Source of the DNA: an uncultured Actinomycetes bacterium
GTDB taxonomy: Bacteria; Actinomycetota; UBA4738; HRBIN12
NCBI GenBank assembly: GCA_964655465.1
Contig: CAZZND010000001.1
Location: 1-54,452, forward strand
Direction: 5' to 3'
Length of the DNA: 54,452 bases
The first letter of the stretch is position 1. Every line of letters starts with the position of its first letter. The position numbers and the translations under genes were made by a program. Shown one piece after another: positions 17,117 to 54,186 of this stretch. The notes under the pieces are model-generated. The model did no database searches. It was given only the letters and a program-made list of their open reading frames with translations, and was not told the origin of the DNA.

Positions 17117-17596
17117 ATGGGCGAGCTGCTGAGCCTTCGGAGCGTGCTCGATGAGACGGACGAACGGATCATCGAGGCTCTGAACCACGATGGGCGCCGC
17201 CCATTCACCCAGATCGCGCGTGAGCTCGGCGTGAACGAAGCGACGGTCCGACATCGCTATGCTCGCCTGGCGCGGCGTGGGGTCATCCAGGTCGTCGGGA
17301 TCTCCGACGCGCTGGCGCTCGGTCTCGTGTTCGCGGAGGTTGGGGTTCGCGTGCGAGGCGGTCCCGTGAGCCGTACGGTCGGCGCGCTCGTCGAGATCCC
17401 CGAGGTCGACTACGTGGCCGTGTGCACCGGCGCCTACGATCTCCTCATCGAGGTCGTGTGCATGGACAACGACCATCTCCTCCGAGTCCTCGACGAGGAG
17501 GTCCGGTCCGCGCCTGGCGTGGACTCGATCGACACCTTCACCATCCTGCAGGTGCCGAAGCACAGTTACGCTTGGACGAGCCTGCTGACCACGTAG
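17117..17596 (+). CDS. Lrp/AsnC-family transcriptional regulator
   Basis: 159-aa ORF. The N-terminal HTH is DERIIEALNHDGRRPFTQIARELGVNEATVRHRYARLARRGVI, and the C-terminal part is ASNC/RAM-like. Confidence 0.9.
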   Translation: MGELLSLRSVLDETDERIIEALNHDGRRPFTQIARELGVNEATVRHRYARLARRGVIQVVGISDALALGLVFAEVGVRVRGGPVSRTVGALVEIPEVDYVAVCTGAYDLLIEVVCMDNDHLLRVLDEEVRSAPGVDSIDTFTILQVPKHSYAWTSLLTT

Positions 17597-17698
17597 ATGA
17601 GGCGGCCGATCGCCGAAATCCGGCATGCGACGGTGTCGGCGATGCGGGTCTTCGGCGCATCGCTCCCTTGCCCACACCGGGGGTCGTGGCTAGCGTCA

Positions 17699-17725
17699 CG
17701 ATCGGCGGGATCAGCCCGCCGATCG
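17699..17725 (+). other. Perfect 11-bp GC-rich hairpin immediately upstream of the RBS of the M20 gene
   Basis: CGATCGGCGGG-ATCAG-CCCGCCGATCG is followed by TGAGGGAGCG and GTG at 17736. Confidence 0.6.
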
Positions 17726-17735
17726 TGAGGGAGCG

Positions 17736-18881: not shown

Positions 18882-19966
18882 AGCGTGGGAGGACCATCGC
18901 AGCGAGCCTGGCGACGGCGGTGCTGCTTGCCGCATGCGGCACCGGGGGAAGCACCACGGCGGAGGGGACGGAGACGAGCGCAGCGCCGCTCTCGGGCGAC
19001 CTCACCTTCTTCGCCTACGAGGACGCCTTCGAACCTGCGTTGTTGGATCCATTCGAGTCCGCCAACCCAGGGGTGAACGTCAGGACGGCGGCTTTCTCGA
19101 GCGCCGACGAGACGATCACGAAGCTGCAGAGCGGATTCGTGGCGGACGTGGTGAACGTCTGTGTTGAGGACACTGGCCGGATGGTGGCCTCGGGCCTGTT
19201 GCAGCCGATCGACACCGCGCGGCTCGCGAACTGGGAGCGGATGTTCCCGGCGTTCCGCGAGCTGGATGGAGTCGCCGTGGACGGGCAGGTGTACCTCGTG
19301 CCGATGGTGGGCGGGACGAGCGGGATCATGTACGACGAGGACGCCATACCGGAAGGGGTCAGCTCGTACGCGACCGCCTTCTCGGAGGAGTACGCGGGGG
19401 AGATCGGGCTGGATGACGATCCTCTGACGGGGATCGCGGTAGCCGCGATGGCCCTTGGCATCGAGGAGCCTCTCAACCTGACCGAGGACCAGCTCGCCCA
19501 AGTCAAGGGATTCCTGATCGAGAAGAAACCGCTGATCCGGTCGCTCTTCAAGGGGGACTCCGACGTGTCGCAGCTGTTCGGATCGGGTGAGATCAGCATC
19601 GCGATCCCGGGGTACAAGGGCACGACAGAGACCCTTCAGGACGACGGGCTGCCGGCGGCGTTCTCGCTCGCGTCCGAGGGACAGCTGACGTGGACCTGCG
19701 GCTACTCGATCGGCGCGAACGCCGAGAACGTCGATGCCGCCTACGCCCTGATCAACCACTACAGCCAGCCTCAGACCCAGGCCTGGCAAGCGGAGAACTT
19801 CTTCTACCTCGTGTCCAACCAAGACACGCTGGATGCGGTGGCACCCGAGATCGTCGAAACGGCGGGGCTCGAGGACCCGGGGAACTTCGAGAACGCCGTG
19901 CCGTACGCCGTCCCTTCGAACTACGACGAGTGGGTCGCGGTCTGGCGCGAGTTCAAGTCCGCGTAG
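18878..19966 (+). CDS. ABC transporter substrate-binding lipoprotein, PotD/PotF family, paralog 3
   Basis: 362-aa ORF whose ATG overlaps the upstream stop (ATGA). The lipobox is LLAACGT. The fold pattern matches the other SBPs. Confidence 0.9.
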   Translation: MKRGRTIAASLATAVLLAACGTGGSTTAEGTETSAAPLSGDLTFFAYEDAFEPALLDPFESANPGVNVRTAAFSSADETITKLQSGFVADVVNVCVEDTGRMVASGLLQPIDTARLANWERMFPAFRELDGVAVDGQVYLVPMVGGTSGIMYDEDAIPEGVSSYATAFSEEYAGEIGLDDDPLTGIAVAAMALGIEEPLNLTEDQLAQVKGFLIEKKPLIRSLFKGDSDVSQLFGSGEISIAIPGYKGTTETLQDDGLPAAFSLASEGQLTWTCGYSIGANAENVDAAYALINHYSQPQTQAWQAENFFYLVSNQDTLDAVAPEIVETAGLEDPGNFENAVPYAVPSNYDEWVAVWREFKSA

Positions 19967-19978
19967 CTCATGGAGCGG

Positions 19979-20005
19979 AGCGGCCCGGTCTCGGACCGGG
20001 CCGCT
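19979..20005. terminator. Bidirectional stem-loop between convergent genes
   Basis: AGCGGCCCGGTC-TCG-GACCGGGCCGCT, a perfect 12-bp stem between the stops at 19966 (+) and 20013 (-). Confidence 0.65.
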
Positions 20006-20012
20006 GAGGCCG

Positions 20013-21551
20013 TCACGATCCGCGCTCCCGGTCGATCAGGTGGGCCGGCTCCGGTGGAGGATGGGAGGCGATCTCGCGCACGGCCTCTGCAACCCGTTCG
20101 CAGGACCAGCGGAACAGATCGGTCGGCATGTCCAGCGGTGGCTGCAGCCGGTACACCCACTTGCCCCACTGCGTGAGCCCGAGGACGCCGCGCTGTACGG
20201 CGACACGGTGAACGGCCCTGTGGAAGGCCGGAGCGGGCCGGATCGAGCTCTTGTCCTGCACGAACTCGATGCCGATGTACGCGCCCGCTGCCCGGACGTC
20301 GCCCACCTGCTCGACCTGGTGCACGAGCGGTCCGAGCACCTCGAGCGCGGTCCGTTCCATCAGCATGACGTTCTCGAGCGCGCCGGTGTCGAGGATCGCG
20401 TCGATGTTGGCGAGGGCGCCCGCCGCAGATGGTGGCGTCCACGCGAAGGTGCCGCCCAGAGCGAGGGTGCTGCTCGCCATGATCTCCTCGGTGCCCAAGA
20501 TCGCGCCGATCGGCTGTCCACCGCCGCTGAACCCCTTGCCGAGGAGCAGCAGATCCGGGCGGATGCCGTAGCGCTCGGCCGCGAACATCGTGCCGCAGCG
20601 TCCCAGGCCGGTCTGGACCTCGTCGAGGATCAGCTTCCAGCCCCATCGCGTACACATCGCCTGCAACCGCTCCCAGAACGCGGGCGAGGGCACGATGATC
20701 CCGCCCTCACCCAGCACGGGCTCTATCAGTACGCCGGCGATCTCGCCTGGTTCGACCTGGTGAACCAGCACCCAGTCCTCGAGATAGTCGAGCGTGGCCG
20801 TGTCATCGAAGGGTCCGGCCCCGCGATGGAACGGGGCCCGGTAGGCGTTCGGGTAGGGGATGAAGACGAGGCCCGGCGCGAACTGCGCGTGCTGGGTAGT
20901 CACCTCGGAGAGATCGGTCGACGATCCCGCCGTGAGGTAGGTGCTCTCGCCGTGGTACTGACCGAGGAACCCGAGGATCATCGGGCGGCCCGTGGCCTCT
21001 CGAGCAAGCTTGATGCCGCCTTCGACCGCCAGGGTGCCCGACAAGGAGTAGGCGACCCGCGAAAGGCCCTCCGGCGCGATCTCGAGGATGCGCTCGGCGA
21101 GCTCGATGACCGGCTCCGAGATCGTGTAGGCGGTGTTCTGCATGCCGAGCGAGCGTTCGCACTCGATCACAGCCTCGGTCACTCTCGACGTCCCTCGAAG
21201 AGGGGTCGACCCCCAGGCCGAGACATGGTCGGCGAACGTGTTGCCGTCCACGTCCTCCAGCAGCCACCCTCGTTGCCTGGCAAGGACGAGGGGTACGTCC
21301 GCGTGGTCGGCACGGCCGATGTACCGGCGGTCGAATCGGTCCAAGAGCTTGGAACTCAACGGACCGGGCAACGACGTGCGGACGCGAGGAGATTCGCCCT
21401 CCAGGGATGTGCGTAGTCGGTCCGTCTCCGCGTCGATGGCCAGACTGTAGGTGTCCCGTTCCGTCCTGTCGTCTCGGATCGCGGCGTGAGGAGGCGAAGA
21501 TCCATCGAACTTCGGACCGTGGCGGTCGTCCTCTGCCTTGACTCGACCCAC
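20013..21551 (-). CDS. Class-III (omega) aminotransferase, paralog 2
   Basis: It has LPGPLSSKL, DEVQTGLGRCGTMFAAE and the PLP-lysine block LGKGFSGG. I place the start at the in-frame GTG 21551-21549. This GTG sits in the same TAGAC(A/T)-GTCGACC-start arrangement as kbl, and it avoids overlap with the divergent permease gene. The N-terminus is still uncertain. Confidence 0.8.
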   Translation of the reverse strand: MGRVKAEDDRHGPKFDGSSPPHAAIRDDRTERDTYSLAIDAETDRLRTSLEGESPRVRTSLPGPLSSKLLDRFDRRYIGRADHADVPLVLARQRGWLLEDVDGNTFADHVSAWGSTPLRGTSRVTEAVIECERSLGMQNTAYTISEPVIELAERILEIAPEGLSRVAYSLSGTLAVEGGIKLAREATGRPMILGFLGQYHGESTYLTAGSSTDLSEVTTQHAQFAPGLVFIPYPNAYRAPFHRGAGPFDDTATLDYLEDWVLVHQVEPGEIAGVLIEPVLGEGGIIVPSPAFWERLQAMCTRWGWKLILDEVQTGLGRCGTMFAAERYGIRPDLLLLGKGFSGGGQPIGAILGTEEIMASSTLALGGTFAWTPPSAAGALANIDAILDTGALENVMLMERTALEVLGPLVHQVEQVGDVRAAGAYIGIEFVQDKSSIRPAPAFHRAVHRVAVQRGVLGLTQWGKWVYRLQPPLDMPTDLFRWSCERVAEAVREIASHPPPEPAHLIDRERGS

Positions 21552-21568
21552 GGTCGACTGTCTACTAT
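21552..21568. promoter_or_regulatory. Phased GTNNAC operator (site 3) in a divergent promoter region
   Basis: GTCGAC-T-GTCTAC at 21553-21565. The plus-strand -10-like box is TACTAT (21563-21568). The minus-strand -10-like box is TAGACA (21564-21559), 7 nt before GTG 21551. Confidence 0.6.
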
Positions 21569-21636
21569 CTTCCGCCCGTCCCCAGCGCCGCTGCCGACCT
21601 GCCGGCGGCTCGGTACGGAGGGTGCCCGGAGGTGAC

Positions 21637-22518
21637 GTGGCCGACCAGATCGCGACGGTGAAGACTGAGGAGGAGCGCCGCTCTGAGCCGATCGGTGGGG
21701 CTGGTCGCCCCGCCCGCGTTGCCAGGATCGCCTTCCTGGCCGGGGTCATGCTGCTGCTGTACGGGCCACTAGCGGTCCTCGCCCTCTTCTCTTTCAACGA
21801 TCAGATCGTGATCGCGTTGCCGTTCCACGCATTCACGCTCGAGTGGTATCGAGAGGCGCTCGACAACAAGCTGGTTCGGGAGTCGCTGAAGAACTCGCTG
21901 ATCCTGGCCTCCATCGTGACGCCGGTCGCGGTGGTGCTCGGGACGCTGGCCGCGTTCGCCCTCACGCGGTTCGCCTACCGGCTCCGCGGCGGCGTGGCGA
22001 TCCTCGTGGGAGGTCCGCTCGTGGTGCCGTGGCTGCTGATCGCCGTCGGGCTGTTGCTGTTCTTCAGCCGGCTCAAGATAGCGCTAGGGTTCACCACGAT
22101 CGGCCTGTCGCACGTGGTGGTCGCGTTCCCGCTCGTTGCGGCCATCGTCTCGGCCCGGCTCCTGCGGTTCGATCCGCGCCAGGAAGAGGCGGCGCGCGAT
22201 CTGGGCGCCACCAACGGCGAGGTCCTGAGGTTCGTGATCCTCCCGCACCTCGCGCCCGCGATCGCCGCCGCGGCGGTCCTCGCCTTCAGCTACTCGTTCA
22301 ACAATTTCGTGATCAGCTTCTTCACCGGAGGCTTCGAGCTCACCTTCCCGACGTGGGTGTTCTCGACCCTCCGCCATGCGCAGAACGTGCCGATTGTCAA
22401 CGCGATCTCGACGCTCGTCTCGGCGGTCCAACTGGCGGTCATCGTGCTCGCCTGGGTGCTGTGGAACCGTCGCGCGCGCAGGATCGCCAGCGCCGACCCG
22501 ATGGCGATGCTGTGGTAG
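21637..22518 (+). CDS. ABC transporter permease (PotC-like), system 1
   Basis: In-frame GTG at 21637 follows GGAGG. The product is a multi-TM protein with the EAA-type loop EEAARDLGATNGEVLRFVILPHLAPAI. Confidence 0.85.
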   Translation: MADQIATVKTEEERRSEPIGGAGRPARVARIAFLAGVMLLLYGPLAVLALFSFNDQIVIALPFHAFTLEWYREALDNKLVRESLKNSLILASIVTPVAVVLGTLAAFALTRFAYRLRGGVAILVGGPLVVPWLLIAVGLLLFFSRLKIALGFTTIGLSHVVVAFPLVAAIVSARLLRFDPRQEEAARDLGATNGEVLRFVILPHLAPAIAAAAVLAFSYSFNNFVISFFTGGFELTFPTWVFSTLRHAQNVPIVNAISTLVSAVQLAVIVLAWVLWNRRARRIASADPMAMLW

Positions 22519-23393
22519 CCAGCGCAGCTGCTGCGCCTCACCGCCGTAGCCTCGCCGGGCCGTTCTACGCGGCGCTGCCCACGGCGGTGCTCCTGCTGCT
22601 GTTCGTGGGGCCGATGCTCATCCTGCTGTACTTCTCGTTCCAGGAGTCGCTGTTCGGCCAGGCGAAGGGCTGGACGTTCGACAACTACACGTCGATCCTG
22701 ACCGATCGCACCTACGGGAAGGTCATGCTCACCACCGTCACGATCTGCACGATCTCCATGCTGGTGATGCTCGCGATCGCGATCCCCATGGCCTACCTAC
22801 TCGCCTTCCGCCTGCGCCCGAAGATGGAGTTGCTGTTCCTCCTCCTGCTCGTGCTCTCCGAAGAGCTCAACCCGTTGATCCGGGTGTACGCCTGGCGCAC
22901 CATCTTGGGTCGGCAAGGAGTCGTGAACTTCCTTCTCATGAAGCTCGGGCTCATCGAACACCCGATCGACGTGCTGTTGTTCTCGAGCCTGGCGGTTGTC
23001 ATCGTCATGTCGACCACTTACGTGCCGTACACGACCATCCCGATCTACGCGGCGTTGAAGGCGGTGGACCCCTCACTTCTCGAGGCGGCGGACGATCTGG
23101 GGGCCTCGTTCGCGACGAGGTTCCGCAAGATCCTCCTTCCGCTCGCGGCGCCGGGGATCTTCGTGTCGATCATCTTGGTCTACATCCCCTTGTACTCGGA
23201 GTTCGCCGCGCCGTCGCTGGTCGGCGGGACCAGCGGCTACATGATCGGCAACGCCATCCAGGAGCAGATCCTGGAGGCGGGCAACCGCGGTGTCGGCGCG
23301 GCGATGAGCTTCATGTTGCTGGTGCTGTCGGGGGCGATCGCCTTCGCCGGGTACCGGCTCGGCAGGATCAAGCGGCTGCAAGCGACGGCATAG
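22512..23393 (+). CDS. ABC transporter permease (PotB-like), system 1
   Basis: In-frame GTG at 22512 overlaps the upstream stop. The product is a multi-TM protein with the EAA loop LEAADDLGASFATRFRKILLPLAAPGI. Confidence 0.85.
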   Translation: MVASAAAAPHRRSLAGPFYAALPTAVLLLLFVGPMLILLYFSFQESLFGQAKGWTFDNYTSILTDRTYGKVMLTTVTICTISMLVMLAIAIPMAYLLAFRLRPKMELLFLLLLVLSEELNPLIRVYAWRTILGRQGVVNFLLMKLGLIEHPIDVLLFSSLAVVIVMSTTYVPYTTIPIYAALKAVDPSLLEAADDLGASFATRFRKILLPLAAPGIFVSIILVYIPLYSEFAAPSLVGGTSGYMIGNAIQEQILEAGNRGVGAAMSFMLLVLSGAIAFAGYRLGRIKRLQATA

Positions 23394-23402
23394 GAGGACG
23401 AC

Positions 23403-24542
23403 GTGTCTGAGGCATCGGAGTCGCGGGGTGGCGGGCCCGCCATGCGGCTGGAGGGGGTGGTGAAGCGGTTCGGCGATGTCGTGGCGGTCGATCACATCGA
23501 CTTCGAGATCCGGCCGAGCGAGTTCTTCTCTTTGCTCGGTCCGAGCGGCTGCGGCAAGACCACGACCCTGCGCATGCTCGCAGGGTTCGAGCGCCCCACC
23601 GAGGGACGCATCCTGATCGACGAGGTCGACTCCGCCGATCTGCCGCCGCACCGCCGCGATACGAACATGGTGTTCCAGAGCTACGCGCTGTTCCCGCACA
23701 TGACCGTGGCGCAGAACGTGGCGTTCGGGCCGCAGCGCAAGCGGTTGGGGCGTGCGGAGGTCGAGAACGCCGTGCGTGAGGCTCTCGCCACGGTACGGAT
23801 GAGGGACTACGCCGGCCGCTACCCGCGCGAGCTCTCCGGCGGGCAGCAGCAGCGGATCGCGCTCGCGCGCGCGCTCGACGAGCCGCTCGGGGCGCTCGAC
23901 CTGAAGCTCCGCGAGGAGATGCAGTTCGAGTTGAAGCGCATCCAGCGCGACGTGGGGATCAGCTTCGTCTATGTCACGCACGACCAAGGTGAGGCCATCA
24001 CGATGTCGGATCGGATCGCCGTGATGAACGGCGGTCGTGTCGAGCACCTCGGCACACCCGAAGAGGTCTACCTGCGGCCCGCCACGCGGTTCGTGGCCGG
24101 CTTCATCGGGCAGGCGAGCTTCCTGCCGTGCCGCGTCGAGACCGCCGGCCGCGATAGCGCTCGTGTCGTGCTCCCCGGTGGGGTCCCCGCGACGGCCGGG
24201 GGTGCCGCGGCAGGGTGCGTCGCCGGCACCGAGGCCGTGCTGATGCTGCGCCCAGAGCACGTGCGGTTGAGCGCCGCCGATCCCGGCCGGCCCGGCTCGT
24301 TCCCGGCCCGTGTCGTCGAGCAGGTCTTCCAGGGCGCGGTGGTGCGCTACGGCCTCGAGGCCGCCGAAGGCGCGCGCCTCACGGCGATCACGCCGCTCGC
24401 CGACCGCCTCGACCCCGACGCAGGGGGCAACGCGTGGGTGAGCTGGTCCTCCGAGTGGGCGTACGTGTTGCCGGCCGAAGACGGGGGCGAGACGCCAGCA
24501 GAGCAGACGGCGAGGCTTCCCAGCGGCGACGTCGTGTCGTAG
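23403..24542 (+). CDS. ABC transporter ATP-binding protein (PotA-like), system 1, with a 9-aa deletion at Walker B
   Basis: It has Walker A [9 protein letters not shown], Q-loop [11 protein letters not shown], signature LSGGQQQR and H-loop YVTHDQ. The segment between the signature and DEP reads [14 protein letters not shown], whereas the paralog reads [23 protein letters not shown]. Confidence 0.85.
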   Translation: [379 protein letters not shown]

Positions 24543-24551
24543 ACTGTCAAC
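24539..24551 (+). promoter_or_regulatory. Phased GTNNAC operator (site 4) with a -10-like TAGACT, upstream of the grd-like operon
   Basis: GTAGAC-T-GTCAAC overlaps the potA-like stop codon (TAG 24540-24542). TAGACT lies at 24540-24545. Confidence 0.55.
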
Positions 24552-24554
24552 AGC

Positions 24555-25808
24555 TTGTCATCCACCCACGCTGATCTTGTGATCGCGGCGTTCGCGATCG
24601 ACGAGATCGTCGAGGGGACCCAGACAGGGCGGGACGGCACGACGCTGATCGTGTCGCCACCGCAGCTCGCGGTCGGAGCCGGGGAACCGGCACTGGCGGA
24701 GGCCACGGTCGAGGTCGTCCGTCCCGGCGATCGCGTCCGCATCTCGAACGTCCTCGATGCCGTGCTGCCCGACGTGCGCGCGGACGACCCCGTGTGCACG
24801 TTCCCGGGTGCCCTCGGCACCCTCAGCCCGGCGGGGAACGGCCGGTTGCATCGCCTGCGCGGGGTCGCGGTCCTGTCGGTCTGCGACTGGCAGGCCGCCG
24901 GCCACGTCGAGCCCGACGACTTCCCGGATTGCGTCGTGGACATGGACGGGCCGGGCGCGTCCCTCAGCCCCTGGGGCTCGACGTGCAACGTCGTCGTGCG
25001 GGCGGTGCCGGCGACCGGCGCGCCGGTCGCCGACGTAGATCGCGCGATCCGGCGCGCGACGCTTCGCGTCGCGCGCACCCTCGCCGAGACAACCATGGAG
25101 GCTGCGCCCGACGACGTGACCACCTTCGGACCGCTGCGCGCCGCGCCGGACGACCTGCCTCGCGTCGCGGCCATCCTGCAGGTCGCCTCCGAGGGTCCGC
25201 TGACCGACACGTTCTTCTACGGGGCGCCGATGGGCGGCCTGGTTCCCACCGTGATCGATCCCCGCGAACCGCTCGGTGGCGCGTTGATCAACGGGGCGTA
25301 CGACTGGCCGTCGGTCCGCAACCAGACGGCGACGTACCAGGACCTCGCGCTCGTCCACGAGCTGATCGCCGCCGACGGCGAGCGTCTGCGCTTCGCCGGG
25401 CTGATCGTGGCGCTCGGCTACCTCAGCACGGCGTTCGAGAAGCAGCGTTCGGCCATGCTGTCGGCGCGTCTCGCCCGTTCTCTCGGAGCCGACGCTGCGA
25501 TCTGCACGACGTTCTCGTCGGGCAACTCCCACACCGACACGATGCTCACCGTGCGCGCGCTCGAGCGTATGGACATCGCCGCGGTGCCGATCGTGGCCGA
25601 GACCAACGGCGGGCTCACCGACCACGTCCCCGAGGCCGTGAGCATCGTGAGCGTGGGGAACGAGGACGAGCTCGTCGAGGCGTGGACGCCCGACCGCGTG
25701 ATCGGGAGCGACGGGCCCGCGCGCGCCGGCGAGCCCGTCCCGACGTGGGCGTACCTCGGCGCGACGGTGCAGACCGGTGACGGATGGCTCCAGGCGGTGC
25801 CGGCATGA
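24555..25808 (+). CDS. Glycine/sarcosine/betaine reductase component B, GrdE/GrdG/GrdI-family subunit (no mid-protein Cys, so GrdI-like)
   Basis: 417-aa ORF. From memory it is collinear with GrdE-family proteins (VEVVRPGDRVRISNVLDAV...FPGALG...GRLHRLRGVAV; CVVDMDGPGASLSPWGSTCNVVV; SSGNSHTD...PIVAETNG). Its stop overlaps the start of the GrdB-like gene (ATGA). The start is uncertain: TTG 24555 or GTG 24579. Confidence 0.72.
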   Translation: MSSTHADLVIAAFAIDEIVEGTQTGRDGTTLIVSPPQLAVGAGEPALAEATVEVVRPGDRVRISNVLDAVLPDVRADDPVCTFPGALGTLSPAGNGRLHRLRGVAVLSVCDWQAAGHVEPDDFPDCVVDMDGPGASLSPWGSTCNVVVRAVPATGAPVADVDRAIRRATLRVARTLAETTMEAAPDDVTTFGPLRAAPDDLPRVAAILQVASEGPLTDTFFYGAPMGGLVPTVIDPREPLGGALINGAYDWPSVRNQTATYQDLALVHELIAADGERLRFAGLIVALGYLSTAFEKQRSAMLSARLARSLGADAAICTTFSSGNSHTDTMLTVRALERMDIAAVPIVAETNGGLTDHVPEAVSIVSVGNEDELVEAWTPDRVIGSDGPARAGEPVPTWAYLGATVQTGDGWLQAVPA

Positions 25809-27094
25809 CGGTCGTGCACTACCTCAACCAGTTCTTCGCCGGCCTCGGCGGCGAGGAGGTGGCCGGCCACGAACCGATCCGCCTCGACGGACCGCAGGGC
25901 CCGGGACGAGGTCTCGCGGCCGAGGGTCTCGACGTCGACGTCACCCTCGCCTGTGGCGACGATCATTTCGGTGAGCACGAGGACGAAGCGCTGCGGACCC
26001 TCCTCGGCTGGATCGACGAGCTCGATCCGGACGTGCTCGTCTGCGGGCCGGCGTTCGGCTCGGGTCGCTACGGCTACGCGTGCGGCGTGCTGGCGCGCGA
26101 GGCCGCGCGGCGCGGCGTGCCGGTCGTGACCGCGATGACGCCCGACTCGCCCGGGGTGCTCGCTGCCGAGGGCGCGGCGTACGTCGTGCCGACCACGTCC
26201 AATGTCGCCGGCATGCGGGCGGTGCTGCCCGTCGTGGCAGGGCTCGCGAAGAGGCTCGCCGCCGCCGAGGCCGTGGGGGGGCCCGAGGAGGAGGGCTACC
26301 TGCCGCGGGGGCTCCGCGCGAACGCGCGGGCCGATCGCCCGGGCGCCGCGCGCGCGATCGACCTGGCGCTCGCCCGCCTGGCCGGCGAAACGATGACCGA
26401 GGTCGAGCCCTCCGGCGATCGGGTACCGCCGCCGCCCGCGCTGACGGACCTCTCGGATGCCACGATCGCGCTCGTCACGGAGGCCGGCTGTGTGCCACAG
26501 GGCAATCCCGATCGCTTGCCCACGCGTCGCGCCAACGTGTGGTTGCGTTATCCGATCGATGGGGTCGCGTCGTTCACCGCCGACCGGTATCAGTCGGTCC
26601 ACGCTGGCTTCGACACGACCGCCGCGAACGAAGATCCCAACCGCCTGGTGCCGCTCGACGCCGCGCGCGCGTTAGAAGCGGCCGGCAAGTTCGGTCGCTT
26701 GCACGACGCGTTCTACACGACGTCGGGCGTCGACACGCCGGTGGCCACGGCCGCCAAGTTCGGGCGCGAGATCGCCGAGGAATGCCGCGAGGCCGGGGTG
26801 CAGGCCGTGATCCTGACAGGCACCTGAGGGACAGGAACGCGTTGCGGGGCAACGCTGTCGAAGGAGTTGGAGCGGATGGGGATCCCGACCGTGTTCATCA
26901 CGGCGCTCCCGACCATCGCGCAGATGGTGGGCGCCAACCGGATCATGCGCGGTGTCTCGATCACGCACCCCACGGGCGACCCGTCGCTCGCGGCTGGGGA
27001 CGAGCTCGCACTTCGCACCGCGATGCTCGACCGCGCCCTGGACATGCTGCAGACCGACGTCGGGCCGCTGACGGTGTGGGAGGTCGAACGCTGA
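25805..27094 (+). CDS. grdB: Selenoprotein B of a Grd-type reductase (GrdB/GrdF/GrdH family); TGA 26825-26827 decoded as selenocysteine
   Basis: The N-terminus MTVVHYLNQFFAGLGGEE is the hallmark GrdB start. ORF 25784..26827 ends ...AVILTGT at a TGA. The same frame continues GTGTRCGATLSKELERMGIPTVFITALPTIAQMVGANRIMRGVSITHPTGDP..., which includes the 75-aa ORF 26867..27094. This reproduces the U-x2-C-x2-C Sec motif of GrdB. The product is 429 aa with Sec at residue 341. The symbol is family-level only. Confidence 0.88.
26838..26857 (+). other. Candidate bacterial SECIS hairpin for the GrdB-like UGA
   Basis: The 7-bp stem GCGTTGC/GCAACGC (26839-26845 and 26849-26855) has a G-rich apex (GGG). 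It starts about 11 nt after the UGA, and C26838:G26857 extends it across a bulged T. Confidence 0.55.
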
Positions 27095-27095
27095 C

Positions 27096-28409
27096 GTGAC
27101 CACCCCCGCGATCCTCGGCGCCAGTCTGACCCTGCAGCACGTGCCCGACCTCGTGCGGCACGGGTCCAAACCGGCGCGCGAGCCCGACCTGCTGCCCCGG
27201 TTGCTCACGTCGCTCAGGACCTACGACGACGCCGTCGCGTACCCGCCGCATCAGGTGTTCATCGGCAACCTCTCGCCGCGCGCGCTCCGTGACCTGCCTC
27301 GGCCGTGGTGGCGCGACGCGCCTCCCGCGCCCGAGGACGGGCCGAGCGGGCAGATCGTCGATGAGGCCACGTTCTACGAGTGGCTCGCCGCGCTCGACCG
27401 GTTCGAGCTGGTGCGCATGAAACAGGAGCCTCGTCCCGGAGATCTGCCACTGTACGCAGGCGGAGAAGTCATCGGCGCGTTCGCGCCTGGCCACGACCAG
27501 GACGAGTCGCTCACCGCCTCGGTGCTGCTCGAGAACCTGTCGTGCCTGGTGAGCGCGACGTCCGCGACCCGCCACCTGCTGACCGCCTCCGGTGTCGATC
27601 CCGCGTCGATCACCCATGTGATCGCCTGCGGCGAAGAGGCGATCGGCGACCGCTACCAGCGTGGCGGCGGCAACCTCGCGAAGGCGGTCGCCGAGGCCTG
27701 CGACCTGACCGAGGCCAGCGGCGCCGACGTGAAGGCGTTCTGTGCGGGCCCGATCCACGCGCTGATCGTCGCCGGGGCGCTCGTCGCCTCCGGCGTGCAC
27801 GACCGGGTCGCCGTCGTGGCCGGCGGATCGCTCGCCAAGCTCGGCATGAAGTTCCTCGGGGCGCTCGAGACCGGTGGGCCGATCATCGACGATACCCTCG
27901 CGGGGATGGCCGTCTTGGTGGGCCGCGCCGAGGACGATCCGTCTGCGCCGGTCATGCGCATGGACGCGATCGGACGCCACCGCACCGGCTCGGTCTCGCA
28001 GCAGGCCTTGCTGGAGGACATCGTCGGTGGACCGCTGGATGCGATGGGTATCGGCATCGCCGACATCGATGTCTACGCGACGGAGCTGCACAACCCCGAG
28101 GTCACCGAGCCCGCCGGCGGCGGCGACGTGCCCGACCGCAACTACCGGATGCTCGCGGGGCTCGGGGTCGTTCGAGGCGAGCTCGAGCGCGAGGCGATGG
28201 CCACGTTCGTGCACGACCACGGCTTGCCCGGCTTCTCGCCCACGCAGGGGCATATCGCCTCGGGCGTGCCCTGGCTCCCGCACGCGCTCGCGCGGTTCCG
28301 CGCGCGCGACCTCGACCGAACGATGTTGCTCGCCAAAGGCAGCCTGTTCCTCGGGCGGATGACGCGGCTGTGGGACGGCGCCTCGATCACCATGGAGGCC
28401 CAACGATGA
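27096..28409 (+). CDS. grdC: Grd reductase component C, beta subunit (GrdC-like, thiolase/KAS-III-like fold)
   Basis: 437-aa ORF with a GTG 2 nt after the GrdB stop. These blocks match my recollection of GrdC: ASLTLQHVPDLVRHG, AYPPHQVFIGNLSP..PWW, ACGEEAIGDRYQRGGGNLAKAV, DVKAFCAGPIHALI, EPAGGGDVPDRNYRML, GLPGFSPTQGHIASGVPW and KGSLFLGRMT. Confidence 0.75.
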   Translation: MTTPAILGASLTLQHVPDLVRHGSKPAREPDLLPRLLTSLRTYDDAVAYPPHQVFIGNLSPRALRDLPRPWWRDAPPAPEDGPSGQIVDEATFYEWLAALDRFELVRMKQEPRPGDLPLYAGGEVIGAFAPGHDQDESLTASVLLENLSCLVSATSATRHLLTASGVDPASITHVIACGEEAIGDRYQRGGGNLAKAVAEACDLTEASGADVKAFCAGPIHALIVAGALVASGVHDRVAVVAGGSLAKLGMKFLGALETGGPIIDDTLAGMAVLVGRAEDDPSAPVMRMDAIGRHRTGSVSQQALLEDIVGGPLDAMGIGIADIDVYATELHNPEVTEPAGGGDVPDRNYRMLAGLGVVRGELEREAMATFVHDHGLPGFSPTQGHIASGVPWLPHALARFRARDLDRTMLLAKGSLFLGRMTRLWDGASITMEAQR

Positions 28410-28762
28410 ACGTCAGCGCCGAGACCTACGACGTCCTCGCGACGAGCGGCCACGTCTTCCTCGACGTGTGGGGTCCGCAGTGCCAGCCGTGCATCGCGAT
28501 GATGCCGGCGATCGACGATCTGGCGCGCCGTTACGACGGCCGGGTCAAGGTCTTGAAGCTCGAAGGGCCCGAGCACCGCGAGCTGTGCCGCTCGCTCCGC
28601 GTGGCCGGTCTGCCCACCTACATCACGATGCGCGACGGCGGCGAGGTCGAACGCCTGACCGGCAACGGGCTCACGTTCACCGACCTGGAGGCCGCGATCG
28701 AGCGGCTGCTGGACGGCGCCCCCGTGGTGGGGCTCCCCGTTCCCGAACACCTGAGGGGGTGA
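28406..28762 (+). CDS. Thioredoxin-family protein with an atypical CQPC active site
   Basis: ATG at 28406 overlaps the GrdC stop (ATGA). It reads FLDVWGPQCQPCIAMMPAIDDLARRYDGRVKVLKLE...GLPTYITMRDGGEV, a Trx fold with CQPC in place of CGPC. Length 118 aa. Confidence 0.85.
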   Translation: MNVSAETYDVLATSGHVFLDVWGPQCQPCIAMMPAIDDLARRYDGRVKVLKLEGPEHRELCRSLRVAGLPTYITMRDGGEVERLTGNGLTFTDLEAAIERLLDGAPVVGLPVPEHLRG

Positions 28763-28773
28763 ATACGAGATCC

Positions 28774-29232
28774 ATGGAACTTCGAGGCAAGAAGGTGATC
28801 GCCCTCGGCGAGCGCGACAGCGTGCCCGGCGAGGCGCTCGCCGAGGTCGCCCGCTCGGCGGGCGCCGAGGTCATCGAGGTGCGCACGGAGTGCTTCGTCT
28901 GAACAGCTTCCGGTGCGATGGATCCTGAGAACCAGGGACTGATCAAGGGGATCGTCGAGGAACACGGCTCCGCCGACCTGGTCGTGCTGCTGGGCGCAGC
29001 CGACGAGGACGCGGTGGAGGTCGCGGCCCAGACGGTCCGTGAGGGCGATCCCTCGTACGTGGGTCCACTCGCCGGGGTCCAGTTGGGACTCCCCGTGCTG
29101 CACGTCTTCGAGGACCAAGTGAAGGAGCAGGCCGACCCGGTCGTCTACGAGGAGCAGGTCGGTTTCTTCGTGCTGTCCTTCGACACCGGCGCGATCATCC
29201 AGGCGATGCGGCGGGCCCGTGGCGAAGCCTGA
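28774..29232 (+). CDS. grdA: Glycine/sarcosine/betaine reductase complex selenoprotein A (GrdA); TGA 28900-28902 decoded as selenocysteine
   Basis: MELRGKKVIALGERDSVPGEALAEVARSAGAEVIEVRTECFV-[TGA]-TASGAMDPENQ...VVLLGAADEDAVEVAAQTVREGDPSYVGPLAGVQLGLPVLHVFE. The CFV-U-TAxGAMD motif and GPLAGVQLGLPV are diagnostic of GrdA. The ORF track splits the gene into the end of 28468..28902 and 28918..29232. The product is 152 aa with Sec at residue 43. Confidence 0.92.
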
Positions 29233-29258
29233 CGCGGCGGGCCCGCCCCTGGGTCCGC

Positions 29259-30455
29259 TCAGGATCGAAGACCGAGCTCACGGCCGACGCGGCCGAAGAT
29301 GGCGATGGCCTCGTCGAGATCGTCGTCAGTATGGTCCGCGGTCACGATGGTGCGCACGCGCGCCCGACCCTTCGCCACCGTCGGGAACACGATCGCCGGG
29401 GCGAACACCCCGGCGTCGAACAGCGCGGCGGCGAACGCCTGGGCCGTCGACTCGTCGCTGGTGATCACCGGGGTGATCGGGGTCTCCGACCCGCCCGTGT
29501 CGAACCCGAGCCCGGCCAGCCCCTCCTTGGATCGTGCGGTGTTCGTCCACAGGCGCTCGAGCCGCTCGGGCTCGTCGCGCATGACGCCGAGCGCCTCGAG
29601 GCATGCCGCCGCCACCGCGGGCGGCGTCGATGTCGAGAACAGGTACGGACGCCCGCGTTGTCGCAACCACTCGATGAGGTGGGCCGGGCCCGCGATGAAC
29701 CCGCCGAGCACGCCGATCGCCTTCGACAGCGTCCCCACCTGGATGTCGACGCGGCCGTGCAGGCCGAAGTGGTCGACCGTGCCTGCGCCGCCCGCGCCGA
29801 GGACCCCGCTCGCGTGTGCATCGTCGACCATCATGATCGCGCCCCGCCGCTCGGCGACCTCGACCAGGTCCGGCAGGGGCGCGATGTCGCCGTCCATAGA
29901 GAACACGCCGTCGGTGATCAGCAGCTGCCGGCGGGCCTCGCCGGCGGTCTCGGCCAACAGACGCTCGGCATGGGCGGCGTCGGCGTGCTCGTAGACCTCG
30001 ATCCTGGCCTTCGACAACCGGGCGCCATCGATGATCGACGCGTGGTTGAGCCGGTCGGACACGATCACGTCCTCGGGCCCCAAGATCGCGGCGACGGTGC
30101 CGGCGTTCGCGGCGAACCCCGACTGGAACATCAGCGCCGCTTCCGCGTGTTTGAAGGCGGCGAACCGTTCCTCCAACTCGACGTGCAGGTCCATCGTCCC
30201 CGCGATCGTTCGGACCGCCCCCGAGCCGGCGCCCAGGTCGCGGGCAGCCCGTGCCGCCGCCTCGTTGAGGCGCGGATGGTTCGCGAGACCCAGGTAGTTG
30301 TTCGACGCGAGGTTGATCACCTCGCGACCGTCGAAGGTCGCGCGGGCTCCGGTCGGGCCGGACAAGGTGCGCGACCGCAGGAGCAGCCCGTCGGCCTCGA
30401 GGCTGGCGACCTCGTCGCGGAGGAACGCGAGCCGGTCCACGGATCCAGCTGACAT
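29259..30455 (-). CDS. kbl: Glycine C-acetyltransferase (2-amino-3-ketobutyrate CoA ligase), Kbl/BioF family
   Basis: ATG at 30455 (MSAGSVDRLAF...) gives 398 aa. Blocks are NLASNNYLGLANHP, VRTIAGTMDLHVELE, VSDRLNHASIIDG, DDAHASGVLG and GTLSKA (PLP Lys). The LNHASIIDG block and the length favour Kbl over BioF. Confidence 0.78.
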   Translation of the reverse strand: MSAGSVDRLAFLRDEVASLEADGLLLRSRTLSGPTGARATFDGREVINLASNNYLGLANHPRLNEAAARAARDLGAGSGAVRTIAGTMDLHVELEERFAAFKHAEAALMFQSGFAANAGTVAAILGPEDVIVSDRLNHASIIDGARLSKARIEVYEHADAAHAERLLAETAGEARRQLLITDGVFSMDGDIAPLPDLVEVAERRGAIMMVDDAHASGVLGAGGAGTVDHFGLHGRVDIQVGTLSKAIGVLGGFIAGPAHLIEWLRQRGRPYLFSTSTPPAVAAACLEALGVMRDEPERLERLWTNTARSKEGLAGLGFDTGGSETPITPVITSDESTAQAFAAALFDAGVFAPAIVFPTVAKGRARVRTIVTADHTDDDLDEAIAIFGRVGRELGLRS

Positions 30456-30469: not shown

Positions 30470-30505
30470 CGTCATGGATGGCAACCCCAGGTGGTGTTGT
30501 CACCG

Positions 30506-30521
30506 GTTGACGGTCTACCAT
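30506..30521 (+). promoter_or_regulatory. Phased GTNNAC operator (site 5b) with -10 TACCAT, 6 nt upstream of the GntR start
   Basis: GTTGAC-G-GTCTAC at 30506-30518. TACCAT at 30516-30521 is followed by GGGTGC and ATG 30528. Confidence 0.6.
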
Positions 30522-30527
30522 GGGTGC

Positions 30528-31196
30528 ATGACGCAACTCACTCCACTGGAGGTGCCTCGTTCCCTCGCCGAGGACGCCGCCGACCGCGTTCGGGAACAGA
30601 TCCTGTCCGGCGGATTCGCCCAGGGCGAGCACCTCGTTGAAGCGAAGATCGCCGAGCAGCTCGGGATCAGCCGCGGGCCGGTGCGCGAAGCCTTCAAGCT
30701 GCTGCGCGCCGAGGGCCTACTGCAGGAAGAGCCCCGGCGTGGGACCTTCGTGGTACGGATGGTGCCGGACGATGTGCGCGAGATCTACGGGCTCCGGGCC
30801 TCGATCGAAGGACGGGCCGCCCGGATGGTGGCGGGAGCGCGAGACGACGATGTGCTCGGAAGGCTTCGGACGAGACTCGGCGCGATCGACGACGCCGTCC
30901 GGAGCGGCGACGCTGCCGCGGTGTTCCAGGCAGACCTGGCGTTCCACCAGGAGATGGTCGCCCTGGCCGGCAACAGCAGGATCGCCGAGGTGTTCGCCAG
31001 GTACGTGCCGACGCTCCGAGCGTTGCTCCGGCTCGATGAGCATGTCTACCGTTCGCTCGACGACATCGCGATGGAGCACCGGCCGTTGTTCGAGGCTATC
31101 GAAGCCGGAGACGCCGACGAAGCTGCTCGGCTCGCCGAGCAACACTGCGACCACGCGGGCGACCTGATCGCCGACTACGTCGAAAGCGGCGGGTAG
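30528..31196 (+). CDS. GntR-family transcriptional regulator (FadR/VanR-like, FCD ligand domain)
   Basis: Starts MTQLTPLEVPRSLAEDAADRVREQILSGGFAQGEHLVEAKIAEQLGISRGPVREAFKLLRAEGLL (GntR wHTH). The C-terminal region is all-helical and FCD-like. I chose ATG 30528 over 30474 because of the promoter geometry. Confidence 0.85.
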   Translation: MTQLTPLEVPRSLAEDAADRVREQILSGGFAQGEHLVEAKIAEQLGISRGPVREAFKLLRAEGLLQEEPRRGTFVVRMVPDDVREIYGLRASIEGRAARMVAGARDDDVLGRLRTRLGAIDDAVRSGDAAAVFQADLAFHQEMVALAGNSRIAEVFARYVPTLRALLRLDEHVYRSLDDIAMEHRPLFEAIEAGDADEAARLAEQHCDHAGDLIADYVESGG

Positions 31197-32431: not shown

Positions 32432-33330
32432 TGGCCATCGCCGCCGAGCGAGGCCTGCCGCCGCTCGCGGCTCCCGGCACCGACGCGCTGCGGCGGCGCC
32501 GTGCCGCCGGGCGGTGGGCCTGGCGCGCGTTCCTCGGCGTCGTCGGGCTCGTTCTGTTCGGGCCCCTGCTGATCCTCGTCGCGTTCGCGTTCAGCGATTC
32601 GAACATCCTCGCCTTCCCGTTCGAAGGTGTCACGACCCGCTGGTTCACGGCGGTGTTCGACGACGCGCTCCTGCGGAAGGCGCTCGTGAACTCCTTCGTG
32701 ATCGCCGCCATCGTCACGCCGGTCTGTCTGGTCTTGGGGACCCTCGCCGCGTTCGGGCTGACCCGCTTCCGCTTCCGTGGCCGAGGTGCGGTCGGCGGTC
32801 TGGTCGCCGCGCCGCTCGTGCTGCCCTGGCTCCTTATCGGGATCGCCGCGTTGATGGCGTACGCCAGGCTGGACATCGAACTGTCGCGTGGCACGGTCAT
32901 CGTCACGCAGATCGTGTGCACGTTCCCGCTGGTCACGGCCATCGTCGCGGCGCAGCTGTTCCGGTTCCAGCGAACCCAGGAAGAGGCCGCGATCGACCTC
33001 GGCTGCTCGCGGCTTCAGGTATTGCGCTACATCATCTTGCCGCACATCGGTCCTGCCCTCGCCGCGGCGGCGATCTTCGCGTTCACCTGGTCGTTCAACA
33101 ACTACGAGATCAGCCTGTTCACGATCGGATTCGACATGACCTTCCCGATCTGGGTGTATTCGTCGGTCCGCAACCCCGACCACACCGCCGTCGTCAACGC
33201 CGTCTCCACGCTGATCTCGGCGGCGCAGGTGGTGCTGATCGTGATCGCGGTGCAGCTTCTGCGGGCCAGAGGCGGCAGCGTGCACGCCATGGCGGGCAGC
33301 GAGATGGCGACGGCGGCGGCGAAGACCTGA
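32431..33330 (+). CDS. ABC transporter permease (PotC-like), system 2
   Basis: 299-aa ORF whose GTG overlaps the upstream TAG by 1 nt. The EAA loop is EEAAIDLGCSRLQVLRYIILPHIGPAL. It is collinear with 21637-22518. Confidence 0.85.
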   Translation: MAIAAERGLPPLAAPGTDALRRRRAAGRWAWRAFLGVVGLVLFGPLLILVAFAFSDSNILAFPFEGVTTRWFTAVFDDALLRKALVNSFVIAAIVTPVCLVLGTLAAFGLTRFRFRGRGAVGGLVAAPLVLPWLLIGIAALMAYARLDIELSRGTVIVTQIVCTFPLVTAIVAAQLFRFQRTQEEAAIDLGCSRLQVLRYIILPHIGPALAAAAIFAFTWSFNNYEISLFTIGFDMTFPIWVYSSVRNPDHTAVVNAVSTLISAAQVVLIVIAVQLLRARGGSVHAMAGSEMATAAAKT

Positions 33331-34214
33331 TGGCTGCCACCGACCCCGGCATCGTCCGTCCCGCGTTCGGGCGTCCTCTCCGGCGCCACGGCGGCGCGGT
33401 CGGGATCTTGTTCGCACCCGTCACGCTGCTCGTGATCTTGTTCCTCGGGCCGATGCTGATCATGGTGCAGATGAGCGTCGTCAGGTTCCCGCCGAGCACC
33501 GCCGGGGGCTACACGCTCGGGCATTACGCCGACGTGCTCACGAACGAGCTCAACCGCACCATCGCGGTCAACACCGCGTTCATCGCAACGACCTCGATGA
33601 TCGTCATGCTCGCGATCGCGATCCCGCTCGCGTACTACCTGGCGTTCAAGGCGCGGAAGTGGGAGCTCTGGATGTTGCTCGCGCTCGTCCTGGCCGACGA
33701 GCTCGCGCCCGTCGTGAAGATCTACGCCTGGCAGGTGATCCTCGGCCGCAACGGGATCGCGAACTACCTGATCCCGGGCGAGCCCGTGGACTGGCTCATC
33801 TACAGCCGGTTCGCCGTCATCCTCACGCTCGCGACCACCTACATCACGTACACCACGATCCCGATCTACGCGGCGATGAAGGCGATCGACCCCACGGTGT
33901 TCGAGGCGTCGACCGACCTCGGGGCCGGCTGGTGGCCACAGGCCCGGCGCATCCTGATCCCTCTGGCCGCCCCGGGCATCTTCATCGCTCTGATCCTCGT
34001 GTACATCCCGATGCTCACGGACTTCGTTACCTCCGACATCGTCGGCGGCGCGGGCGGGGGCACGTACATGCTGGGCCAGCGCGTGCGCGACCTGATCCTG
34101 CAGGGCGCGAACTGGGGTCCCGGCGCAGCGCTCAACTTCCTGCTCCTGATCACGTCCGGGGTGCTCGCCCTGGCCGCCTACCGACTCGCCAAGCTGAACA
34201 GGATCCAGACATGA
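33330..34214 (+). CDS. ABC transporter permease (PotB-like), system 2
   Basis: ATG at 33330 overlaps the upstream TGA. The EAA loop is FEASTDLGAGWWPQARRILIPLAAPGI. It is collinear with 22512-23393. Confidence 0.85.
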   Translation: MAATDPGIVRPAFGRPLRRHGGAVGILFAPVTLLVILFLGPMLIMVQMSVVRFPPSTAGGYTLGHYADVLTNELNRTIAVNTAFIATTSMIVMLAIAIPLAYYLAFKARKWELWMLLALVLADELAPVVKIYAWQVILGRNGIANYLIPGEPVDWLIYSRFAVILTLATTYITYTTIPIYAAMKAIDPTVFEASTDLGAGWWPQARRILIPLAAPGIFIALILVYIPMLTDFVTSDIVGGAGGGTYMLGQRVRDLILQGANWGPGAALNFLLLITSGVLALAAYRLAKLNRIQT

Positions 34215-54093: not shown

Positions 54094-54186
54094 CGGAGGC
54101 GGACGGGAATCGAACCCGCCAGGGGGCTCGTCGCCCCCTCATCGGTTTTGAAGACCGAGGGGCCCACCAGGAACCCGGACGCCTCC
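54094..54186 (-). tRNA. selC: tRNA-Sec (anticodon UCA)
   Basis: The reverse complement reads GGAGGCGT-CC-GGGTTC-CTGGT-GGGCCC-C-TCGGT-CTTCAAA-ACCGA-TG-AGGGGGC-GACGA-GCCCCCT-G-GCGGG-TTCGATT-CCCGT-CCGCCTCC-G. Features are a 7-nt anticodon loop with UCA, a 6-bp D stem, a long variable arm (7-bp stem), a TTCGATT T-loop and discriminator G. It is 93 nt long and no CCA is encoded. A TAGCCT -10-like box (54199-54194) lies 7 nt upstream of the 5' end. Confidence 0.93.

Follow-up and report, generated by a model that had tools for sequence, protein, structure and literature searches.

A candidate GrdD-independent branch of the glycine/sarcosine/betaine reductase family in uncultured soil Actinomycetota

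Contig CAZZND010000001.1 (assembly GCA_964655465.1) belongs to a metagenome-assembled genome (MAG) of an uncultured Actinomycetes bacterium; the whole of it, 54,452 nucleotides, was analysed and is referred to below as the window. It carries a compact operon related to the glycine, sarcosine and betaine reductases, i.e., the Grd selenoenzymes, in which five genes encode an alpha-type subunit of protein B (B-alpha), selenoprotein B, the beta subunit of protein C (GrdC, or C-beta), a thioredoxin (Trx), and selenoprotein A (GrdA). This five-gene module is conserved, mainly in uncultured soil Actinomycetota. On balance, we favor the view that the operon represents a distinct branch of the family that works independently of GrdD, and its substrate and end product probably differ from those of the known enzyme. 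The evidence supports a Grd-family variant departing at three catalytic sites as what is new here, the overall kind of system being known. A preliminary description of this DNA had suggested a new functional variant of the family; that suggestion gains support from the absence of GrdD near the cassette in 82 related loci and from the three departures.

All five genes are on the plus strand, and matches to Pfam and NCBIfam models agree with the identities first assigned to them. The grdE-like gene for B-alpha, which is of the GrdE/G/I-like type (24555..25808; PF09338, E 1.7e-73), starts with TTG. It is followed by the grdB-like gene for selenoprotein B (25805..27094; PF07355, E 1e-110; TIGR01918, 414 bits against a cut-off of 65), by a grdC-like gene of short form with a GTG start (27096..28409; DUF5940; NF040746, 499 bits against a cut-off of 450), by the gene of a Grd-associated thioredoxin of 118 residues with a CQPC motif (28406..28762; PF00085), and by grdA (28774..29232; PF04723; NF040748, 186 bits against a cut-off of 130). 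The best NCBIfam match of the thioredoxin is clostridial TrxA, at 77 bits, which is under the cut-off of 140; a C-x-P-C motif, mostly C-Q-P-C, is present in 67 of the 68 thioredoxin motifs listed for its relatives. The tight couplings claimed at the outset can be seen in the junction sequence: grdE and grdB, as well as grdC and trx, share ATGA overlaps (25805-25808 and 28406-28409), a single base separates the grdB stop from the grdC start, and 11 bases lie between trx and grdA.

Directly upstream, as had also been claimed, is a PotABC-type ATP-binding cassette (ABC) importer, encoded by a PotB/PotC-like permease gene that is probably the first gene of the operon (21538..22518, plus strand; PF00528), a second permease gene (22503..23393, plus strand; PF00528, E 6e-17), and the gene of a PotA-like ATPase with a TOBE domain (23403..24542, plus strand; PF00005 and PF08402). 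The ATPase stop is 12 nt from the TTG start of the grdE-like gene, and the junctions among the ATPase and permease genes are overlapping or 9 bases long. Importer and reductase are likely to form one transcription unit, 21538-29232. The order permease-permease-ATPase-grdE recurs in two related loci, L019 and L023. A promoter and terminator consensus scan of 21200-29400 gave no match, which is uninformative at the G+C content of ~70% found across the whole window.

Of 8000 candidates scored against the GrdC-like protein, 5956 are relatives at E <= 1e-10; the best 120 of them are 63-100% identical and 384-456 residues long, nearly all of them 428-456. A one-genome-per-species collection contains at least 587 relatives, and the best 80 of these all come from MAGs, none from a cultured organism. 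They are labelled as Actinomycetota (Actinomycetes, Thermoleophilia, Gaiellales/Gaiellaceae, Acidimicrobiales), with three Dehalococcoidia and one 'archaeon'. Together with two loci from encoding-contig look-ups, the best 80 make up a census of 82 loci, most of them seen with 10 kb of flank to either side. All 82 have GrdC, 77 have thioredoxin, 77 GrdA, 76 GrdB and 67 GrdE, the shortfalls lying mostly at contig ends; conservation of the five genes extends across two phyla, with identities of 40-86%. By context and gene order the loci fall into three groups. Clade 1 (~30 loci with an alpha subunit at least 50% identical to that of the window) includes the window and has an extended gene order in common; clade 2 (Gaiellaceae, 21 loci examined) has the bare cassette; clade 3 (Dehalococcoidia; L080, L082 and L084) has the order grdC-grdA-grdE-grdB and no thioredoxin gene. 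In the full-text literature, which was covered incompletely, we found no account of DUF5940, of an actinobacterial Grd system, or of systems lacking GrdD.

The GrdD protein reportedly holds the thiol used in phosphorolysis, a finding that is said to come from Kohlstock et al. in 2001. With GrdC it makes up protein C, the acetyl-phosphate-forming component of the known systems, in which protein B bears a carbonyl group (PMC9908766, PMC10838667). It had been proposed that both grdD and trxB, the thioredoxin reductase gene, are missing from the 54 kb, and two kinds of search bear this out. A Pfam scan of ~45 window gene products gave zero matches to the FA_synthesis/PlsX family and no thioredoxin reductase; the only matches to Pyr_redox_2 were weak ones, at the N-terminal FAD-binding motif of two CrtI-like oxidoreductases. 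A tblastn search of the window with two GrdD and two TrxB references gave no match at E <= 1e-5, the best being a 32-residue match to an FAD motif at 8e-4. Among the 82 related loci, GrdD and TrxB were each found in none within ~10 kb of the cassette; a grdD-trxB pair elsewhere, which the preliminary description had named as the finding that would speak against a variant, thus does not occur near the cassette in any of them. The tblastn search does recover these genes where they are expected. Reference loci of the canonical kind were taken from a plasmid collection searched with the GrdC-like protein, and in all three of them, from Acetoanaerobium noterae (L005), Enterococcus gilvus pCR1A (L004) and Photobacterium sp., tblastn finds trxB-trx present and grdD directly after grdC. 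The E. gilvus locus is annotated as trxB, trx, grdA, grdC, grdD, a B subunit and grdH, and GrdD of A. noterae scores 581 bits on NF040747, with a cut-off of 350. The lack of a dedicated trxB is weak evidence for a variant, because a housekeeping reductase is to be expected.

The first of the three departures is in B-alpha. The pyruvoyl cofactor of GrdE arises via self-cleavage before a cysteine, which in the A. noterae reference is Cys242, in SGN/CVSAC. At this position the window protein reads NG-A-YDWPSVRN and has no cysteine, and none of 65 relatives of B-alpha has a cysteine at the site or beside it. The betaine-specific GrdI has Phe at the same position, and the lack of the precursor cysteine in GrdI and FarE is on record (PMC10838667). 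We predict that the B-alpha subunit is not processed and carries no pyruvoyl group.

The second departure is next to the selenocysteine (Sec, U in motifs) of selenoprotein B, where U-x-x-C-x-x-C has become U-x-x-G-x-x-C, the first cysteine being replaced by glycine. The UGA codon of the window gene aligns with the Sec of GrdB and GrdH, and the motif is U-G-T-G-(T/S)-R-C in 67 of 72 relatives, as opposed to U-G-T-C-T-R-C in GrdB and GrdH. Three selenoprotein B sequences from Dehalococcoidia read A-U-G-T-S-T-R-S, with no cysteine nearby.

The third departure is the loss of the C-terminal tail, ~32 residues long, that GrdD-partnered GrdC has. Past the KGSLFLGRMT motif, 12-16 residues follow in 49 evaluable relatives, compared to 46-49 in three GrdC proteins that are partnered with GrdD. 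The window GrdC also lacks a 38-residue internal insert of canonical GrdC; in the Dehalococcoidia the insert is kept and the C-terminal tail is gone. An invariant Cys216, in FCAGP, is aligned by HMMER with the catalytic cysteine motif of β-ketoacyl-acyl carrier protein synthase III (KAS III). An AlphaFold model of GrdC (predicted local distance difference test score, pLDDT, 84.9; predicted template modelling score, pTM, 0.90) has OleA, FabH and thiolases as its top matches in the PDB, so that GrdC is predicted to have a thiolase-superfamily fold with Cys216 as a FabH-type nucleophile. A sequence search of the PDB gave no solved relative for either B-alpha or selenoprotein B. The loss of the pyruvoyl cysteine, the U-x-x-G-x-x-C motif and the missing GrdC tail had all been overlooked in the preliminary description, as had a tRNA-Sec gene on the same contig, and these four observations are the strongest arguments for a functional variant.

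That tRNA-Sec gene, selC, which is needed to decode in-frame UGA codons, is encoded by the minus strand at 54095..54186; it matches Rfam RF01852 with 76.2 bits (gathering score 47) and E 6e-14. Within the cassette, in-frame TGA codons on the plus strand occur at 26825-26827 in the grdB-like gene, in the motif T-U-G-T-G-T-R-C, and at 28900-28902 in grdA, in the motif E-C-F-V-U. The UGA is found at the same position in 71 of 72 grdB and in all 76 grdA relatives, and C-[FY]-V-U is present in each of the 76 GrdA proteins. A hairpin similar to a selenocysteine insertion sequence (SECIS), with 7 bp and a GGG loop, begins 14 nt past the grdB UGA (26839..26855, plus strand). Over 60 distinct sequences it is 97.1% paired, as opposed to 24-60% in slid controls, and one of its pairs shows a compensatory swap from U-A to C-G in 27 of the 60. 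Support for this hairpin is the comparative pairing count, with none obtained for grdA; single-sequence folding 3' of both UGA codons was no better than that of shuffled sequence (z -0.4 to +0.7). The 54-kb window has no selA, selB or selD, and in L001 a selB-selD-selA cluster is found at 15455-19576, from 3.3 kb downstream of the cassette. Because of the tRNA-Sec gene, the conserved UGA position, the covarying grdB hairpin and the sel cluster of L001, both in-frame UGA codons can be taken, on sequence grounds, to be read as selenocysteine. Between the cassette and the sel genes of L001 lie genes for an acyl-CoA dehydrogenase, a phosphonate-type binding protein and an AurF-like protein.

None of the characterised specificity classes accommodates the B subunits. 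Selenoprotein B scores 380 bits on the GrdB model TIGR01917 (cut-off 602), 411 on GrdF NF040794 (800), 375 on GrdH NF040795 (775) and 79 on PrdB TIGR04483 (300), whereas the controls pass: A. noterae GrdB reaches 946 bits on TIGR01917, and E. gilvus GrdH 798 on NF040795. The alpha subunit reaches 152 bits on the GrdG model NF040793 (cut-off 780), where reference GrdE and GrdI score 668 and 345, and 98 bits on FarE NF053623 (cut-off 675); it has no match to the PrdA model TIGR04480. According to BLASTP, each of four subunits is further from the glycine- and betaine-type references than these are from each other. For example, identity of the window selenoprotein B is 43% with GrdB and 39% with GrdH, as opposed to 47% between these two; window GrdC shares 40% and 39% identity with the glycine- and betaine-type references, which share 59%; and the alpha subunit is 32% identical to GrdI, with 39% between GrdE and GrdI. 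These pairwise identities serve as a proxy for phylogeny and are not a tree. The preliminary description had allowed that the B subunits might cluster inside a characterised clade; judged by model scores and not by a tree, they stand outside.

In particular, glycine reductase of the Clostridium/Acetoanaerobium sticklandii type (A. noterae, L005) consists of the same protein families, with two selenocysteines and a thioredoxin donor. Its gene order, however, is trxB-trxA-E-A-B-C-D, and that of the window E-B-C-trx-A, with no GrdD and no TrxB. The equivalent of GrdE Cys242 is replaced in the window alpha subunit, and a Schiff base with glycine is therefore unlikely.

Doubtful, in our opinion, but the best surviving of the alternatives, is the notion that the operon encodes an ordinary glycine betaine reductase, the equivalent of GrdHI, which releases trimethylamine and differs from known enzymes by phylogenetic distance only. 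Betaine reductase of the Eubacterium acidaminophilum type (E. gilvus, L004) shares with the window system the C-x-x-U of GrdA, the position of Sec in protein B, an alpha subunit without the pyruvoyl-precursor cysteine, the FabH-type cysteine of GrdC, and a dedicated C-x-P-C thioredoxin. The unprocessed alpha subunit is a trait of GrdI; glycine betaine is abundant in soil; the Joint Genome Institute (JGI) labels many of the relatives 'betaine reductase'; and in six Gaiellaceae loci a GMC oxidoreductase, of a family that includes choline dehydrogenases, lies beside the cassette. On the other hand, the score on the GrdH model, 375 bits, is lower than that on the GrdF model and far from the 798 bits of a true GrdH. 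The U-x-x-G-x-x-C motif and the absence of GrdD, to which that of TrxB may be added, are foreign to GrdH systems, and the window GrdC is ~75 residues shorter, without the C-terminal tail. No BCCT or OpuA transporter is present in the window, where the importer is PotD/PotF-like, and aminotransferase and dehydrogenase genes conserved near the cassette would be idle if the product were trimethylamine. The host, moreover, is a high-GC and probably aerobic soil actinobacterium, not a fermenter.

We regard as unlikely a conventional system that is merely split, with grdD and trxB elsewhere in the genome, a GrdC-GrdD pair, and production of acetyl phosphate. In its favor, the window covers just one 54-kb contig, related cassettes were viewed with ~10 kb of flank to either side, any bacterium should have a housekeeping trxB, and GrdC does pass the canonical equivalog cut-off. 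Yet each of the three canonical control loci has grdD next to grdC, while in the 82 loci grdC is always inside the cassette and grdD never near it. All GrdD-partnered GrdC proteins of our sample end in a tail that is missing from the short GrdC, and the other subunits have diverged in their catalytic motifs too.

Quite improbable is a Far-like reductase whose substrate is an acetate with a non-amine alpha substituent (for example, a haloacetate, sulfoacetate or dimethylsulfonioacetate) and which releases halide, sulfite or a sulfide in place of an amine. Similarly to the window proteins, FarE/FarB of Cloacibacillus porcorum are without the pyruvoyl cysteines, have a CxxC motif near Sec that is partly or wholly gone, and represent a B-type module for a substrate that needs no Schiff base; FarEB, however, uses the organism's canonical GrdA, GrdC and GrdD (PMC10838667), whereas the window co-encodes the A, C and thioredoxin components and lacks GrdD. 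FarE is the second-best NCBIfam match of the alpha subunit, and the best solved relative of an aminotransferase encoded downstream is a taurine aminotransferase, a hint of organosulfonate metabolism. Against this, the match to FarE is at 98 bits with a cut-off of 675, a polyamine-type importer suits cationic substrates, and Pfam scans of the window revealed no genes for handling sulfite or halide. A further comparison is D-proline reductase (PrdA/PrdB): it is likewise a Sec-dependent enzyme that reductively cleaves an alpha carbon-nitrogen bond, and it neither requires protein C alpha nor forms an acyl phosphate, but Prd does without GrdA and GrdC, both present here, and PrdA bears a pyruvoyl group. 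Finally, the splitting of grdB and grdA by gene callers might indicate that the in-frame TGA codons are true stops and that the operon is a remnant, decaying or without function; this is effectively refuted by the conserved sequence that continues past the TGA in nearly all grdB and in all grdA relatives, by the compensatory change in the hairpin, by the tRNA-Sec gene, and by conservation of the five genes across two phyla.

Returning to the GrdD-independent branch, we infer the following chemistry, step by step, from the observed sequence features. The co-transcribed PotABC-type importer would bring in the substrate, as the gene coupling suggests. Protein B, lacking the cysteine, would bind it without a pyruvoyl Schiff base, and the alpha substituent would therefore have to be a good leaving group already, like the quaternary ammonium of betaine or the fluorine of fluoroacetate. 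By analogy with the rest of the family, the selenolate of GrdB would attack the alpha carbon and expel the leaving group, and the resulting Se-carboxyalkyl ether would be handed to the Sec of GrdA. From this ether GrdC would then, by the same analogy, form an acyl thioester on Cys216, whereby GrdA becomes oxidised; the CQPC thioredoxin would re-reduce GrdA and might itself be reduced by an unlinked housekeeping thioredoxin reductase. With no GrdD for phosphorolysis to acetyl phosphate, the acyl group would have to leave GrdC in another way. Thiolase-fold enzymes swap acyl groups between the catalytic cysteine and coenzyme A (CoA) or acyl carrier protein, and because of this, transfer to CoA would be the most economical and most plausible exit, with hydrolysis as another; alternatively, an unlinked PlsX- or Pta-like enzyme might resolve the thioester. 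In clade 1, the released amine or other product would be processed by the products of the conserved aminotransferase and dehydrogenase genes, which points to a role in scavenging of nitrogen and carbon rather than in Stickland fermentation. The complete picture, in which abundant and probably aerobic soil Actinomycetota (Gaiellales, Thermoleophilia and relatives) and some Dehalococcoidia have a GrdD-free and pyruvoyl-free enzyme that reductively cleaves an imported cationic substrate at its alpha carbon and passes the acyl group from GrdC to CoA, is put forward tentatively.

As for the substrate, neighboring genes suggested polyamines, ectoine, creatine or guanidinoacetate, N-acylglycines, opines, glucosaminate, proline betaine (from an MR_MLE racemase-like gene), choline or phosphocholine (from the PhoX-like and GMC oxidoreductase genes), and taurine or sulfoacetate. 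We do not commit to any one of these, because none fits all of the conserved genes and clade 2 has no such genes.

Several points weigh against the reading we favor. Its substrate candidates all fail to account for the full set of conserved accessory genes; these genes vary by clade, and the lactonase-like protein, the short-chain dehydrogenase/reductase (SDR), the PhoX-like and the CrtI-like proteins have no place in the scheme. The identity of CoA as the acyl acceptor is purely inferred. The scans span one 54-kb MAG contig and flanks of ~10 kb, so an unlinked grdD, PlsX or Pta may exist elsewhere, and B-alpha might carry a carbonyl cofactor other than pyruvoyl. All the relatives examined are from MAGs, hence offer no physiology. 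Finally, GrdC exceeds the cut-off of the NF040746 equivalog, and the Prokaryotic Genome Annotation Pipeline (PGAP) would annotate it as conventional.

Outside the cassette, the genes shared by the loci of clade 1 form two blocks. The upstream block of the window, all on the plus strand, consists of genes for a CrtI-like FAD oxidoreductase (5733-7691), a PhoX-like protein (7441-9096; PF05787, E 8e-60, with no NCBIfam match), a class III aminotransferase (9021-10466; Pfam and NCBIfam), an M20 deacylase that is found in some of the loci only (10466-11578), a second CrtI-like oxidoreductase (11368-13161), an SMP-30/gluconolactonase-like protein (~13170-13994), and a glucose-1-dehydrogenase-like SDR (13994-14791). 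The same genes in the same order, 5733-14791, stand beside the cassette in ~25-30 related loci, and the place of the PhoX-like protein between the CrtI-like oxidoreductase and the aminotransferase is fixed in at least 10. The flavoenzymes had been called FAD amine-oxidase-like; this is not upheld, as they are nearer to CrtI/CrtO-type desaturases, and the label of amine oxidase was given up in view of their matches to CrtO/CrtI models (238-252 bits, below the cut-offs) and to phytoene desaturase in the PDB.

The downstream block, also on the plus strand, comprises a GntR-FCD regulator (30474-31196; Pfam), a second, PotF-like ABC importer (31307 to ~35365; Pfam), a class III aminotransferase (35370-36689), whose best solved relative is taurine:2-oxoglutarate aminotransferase (6jix, 377 bits), and a tartronate-semialdehyde-reductase-like dehydrogenase (36689-37564; TIGR01505, 360 bits against a cut-off of 340.75). 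Its order is kept in more than 15 related loci. The aminotransferase and the dehydrogenase, at 35370-37564, may form an amine-to-aldehyde-to-alcohol pair behind the GntR regulator and the ABC importer. The second permease of this importer is placed at ~33330-34200. In some loci of clade 1, a second lactonase-like gene, an SDR and a gene of the MR_MLE enolase superfamily are added after the cassette; the MR_MLE racemase-like gene occurs in 11 related loci and not in the window.

Between the upstream block and the cassette, the window has an extra set of importer and regulator genes at 14880-21797, where Pfam identifies three PotD/PotF-like binding proteins (14880-15965, 15862-17085 and 18878-19966), an AsnC regulator (17117-17596), a second M20 hydrolase (17736-18881), and, on the minus strand, a class III aminotransferase (20013-21797). 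The nearest PDB relatives of the binding proteins are polyamine-binding proteins. This set is largely shared with L011, which lacks the minus-strand aminotransferase; the importer block lies directly before grdE in the window, as in L019, L023 and, in part, L011.

In clade 2, 7 of 21 loci have an IclR regulator upstream of the cassette and 16 have a caa3 oxidase assembly factor downstream of it, with AI-2E and EamA transporters as further recurring neighbors, besides the GMC oxidoreductase already mentioned. The caa3 assembly factor next to the cassette probably indicates a context of aerobic type. The five-gene module is therefore the constant unit, and the amine-catabolic island, in which the operon had been said to sit, is specific to one clade: the claim holds in clade 1, including the window, and fails for the bare cassette of the Gaiellaceae. 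Agmatine deiminase, an AlaX-like protein and alkaline phosphatases encoded in the window were considered as parts of the system and rejected, as they occur in none of the 82 related loci.

Several further observations concern individual loci and reading frames. At L021 (DATLRQ010000065.1, 7235-12063), grdC-trx-grdA of actinobacterial type is found on a contig binned as 'Candidatus Micrarchaeaceae archaeon', a label that is likely due to mis-binning. The opposite strand of the same locus encodes another grdE/grdB pair, divergent in sequence, whose motif U-G-S-C-N-R-C is canonical-like; the locus thereby suggests that one C/Trx/A set can serve several B modules. L013 and L014 are two copies of the cassette on separate contigs of one MAG (CAWGUD01). 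In the window, an open reading frame of 1296 residues (1661-5551, plus strand), whose G+C content at third codon positions (GC3) is 0.92 throughout, has an MFS_1 domain at residues 862-1231; its N-terminal ~860 residues have no Pfam match, and homologues with 50-52% identity head the cluster in L035 and L037. A protein of 736 residues (40894-43104, minus strand), outside the conserved cluster, combines a NosD-like beta-helix with cupredoxin and PLDc_N domains. Two of the longest frames overlap their neighbors: the one at 20013-21797 (minus strand, 594 aa) has its aminotransferase domain from residue 165, and the one at 33659-35365 (plus strand, 568 aa), the second ABC ATPase, has its domain from residue 210. 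The true starts of both are probably ~150-190 codons further in.

In textbooks, the selenoenzymes Grd and Prd mark the anaerobic fermentation of amino acids, and acetyl phosphate, made by GrdC and GrdD, is the defining output of Grd. The branch described here has no GrdD near the cassette, is predicted to lack the pyruvoyl cofactor, has an altered Sec motif, and includes at least 587 relatives, mostly from the poorly understood soil lineages Gaiellales and Thermoleophilia. If our reading is correct, the chemistry of the family would come to include a leaving group and an acyl acceptor that are both new, and a new substrate and acyl-CoA output would appear in a family thought to be bound to anaerobic Stickland fermentation. 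It would also call for caution with the labels 'betaine reductase' and 'glycine reductase C beta' in soil MAGs, from which pipelines infer Stickland fermentation or the reductive glycine pathway. The size of the module, five genes, makes it directly testable. The soil lineages that carry it would gain a selenium-dependent turnover of organic nitrogen or osmolytes, possibly with formation of trimethylamine or other amines.

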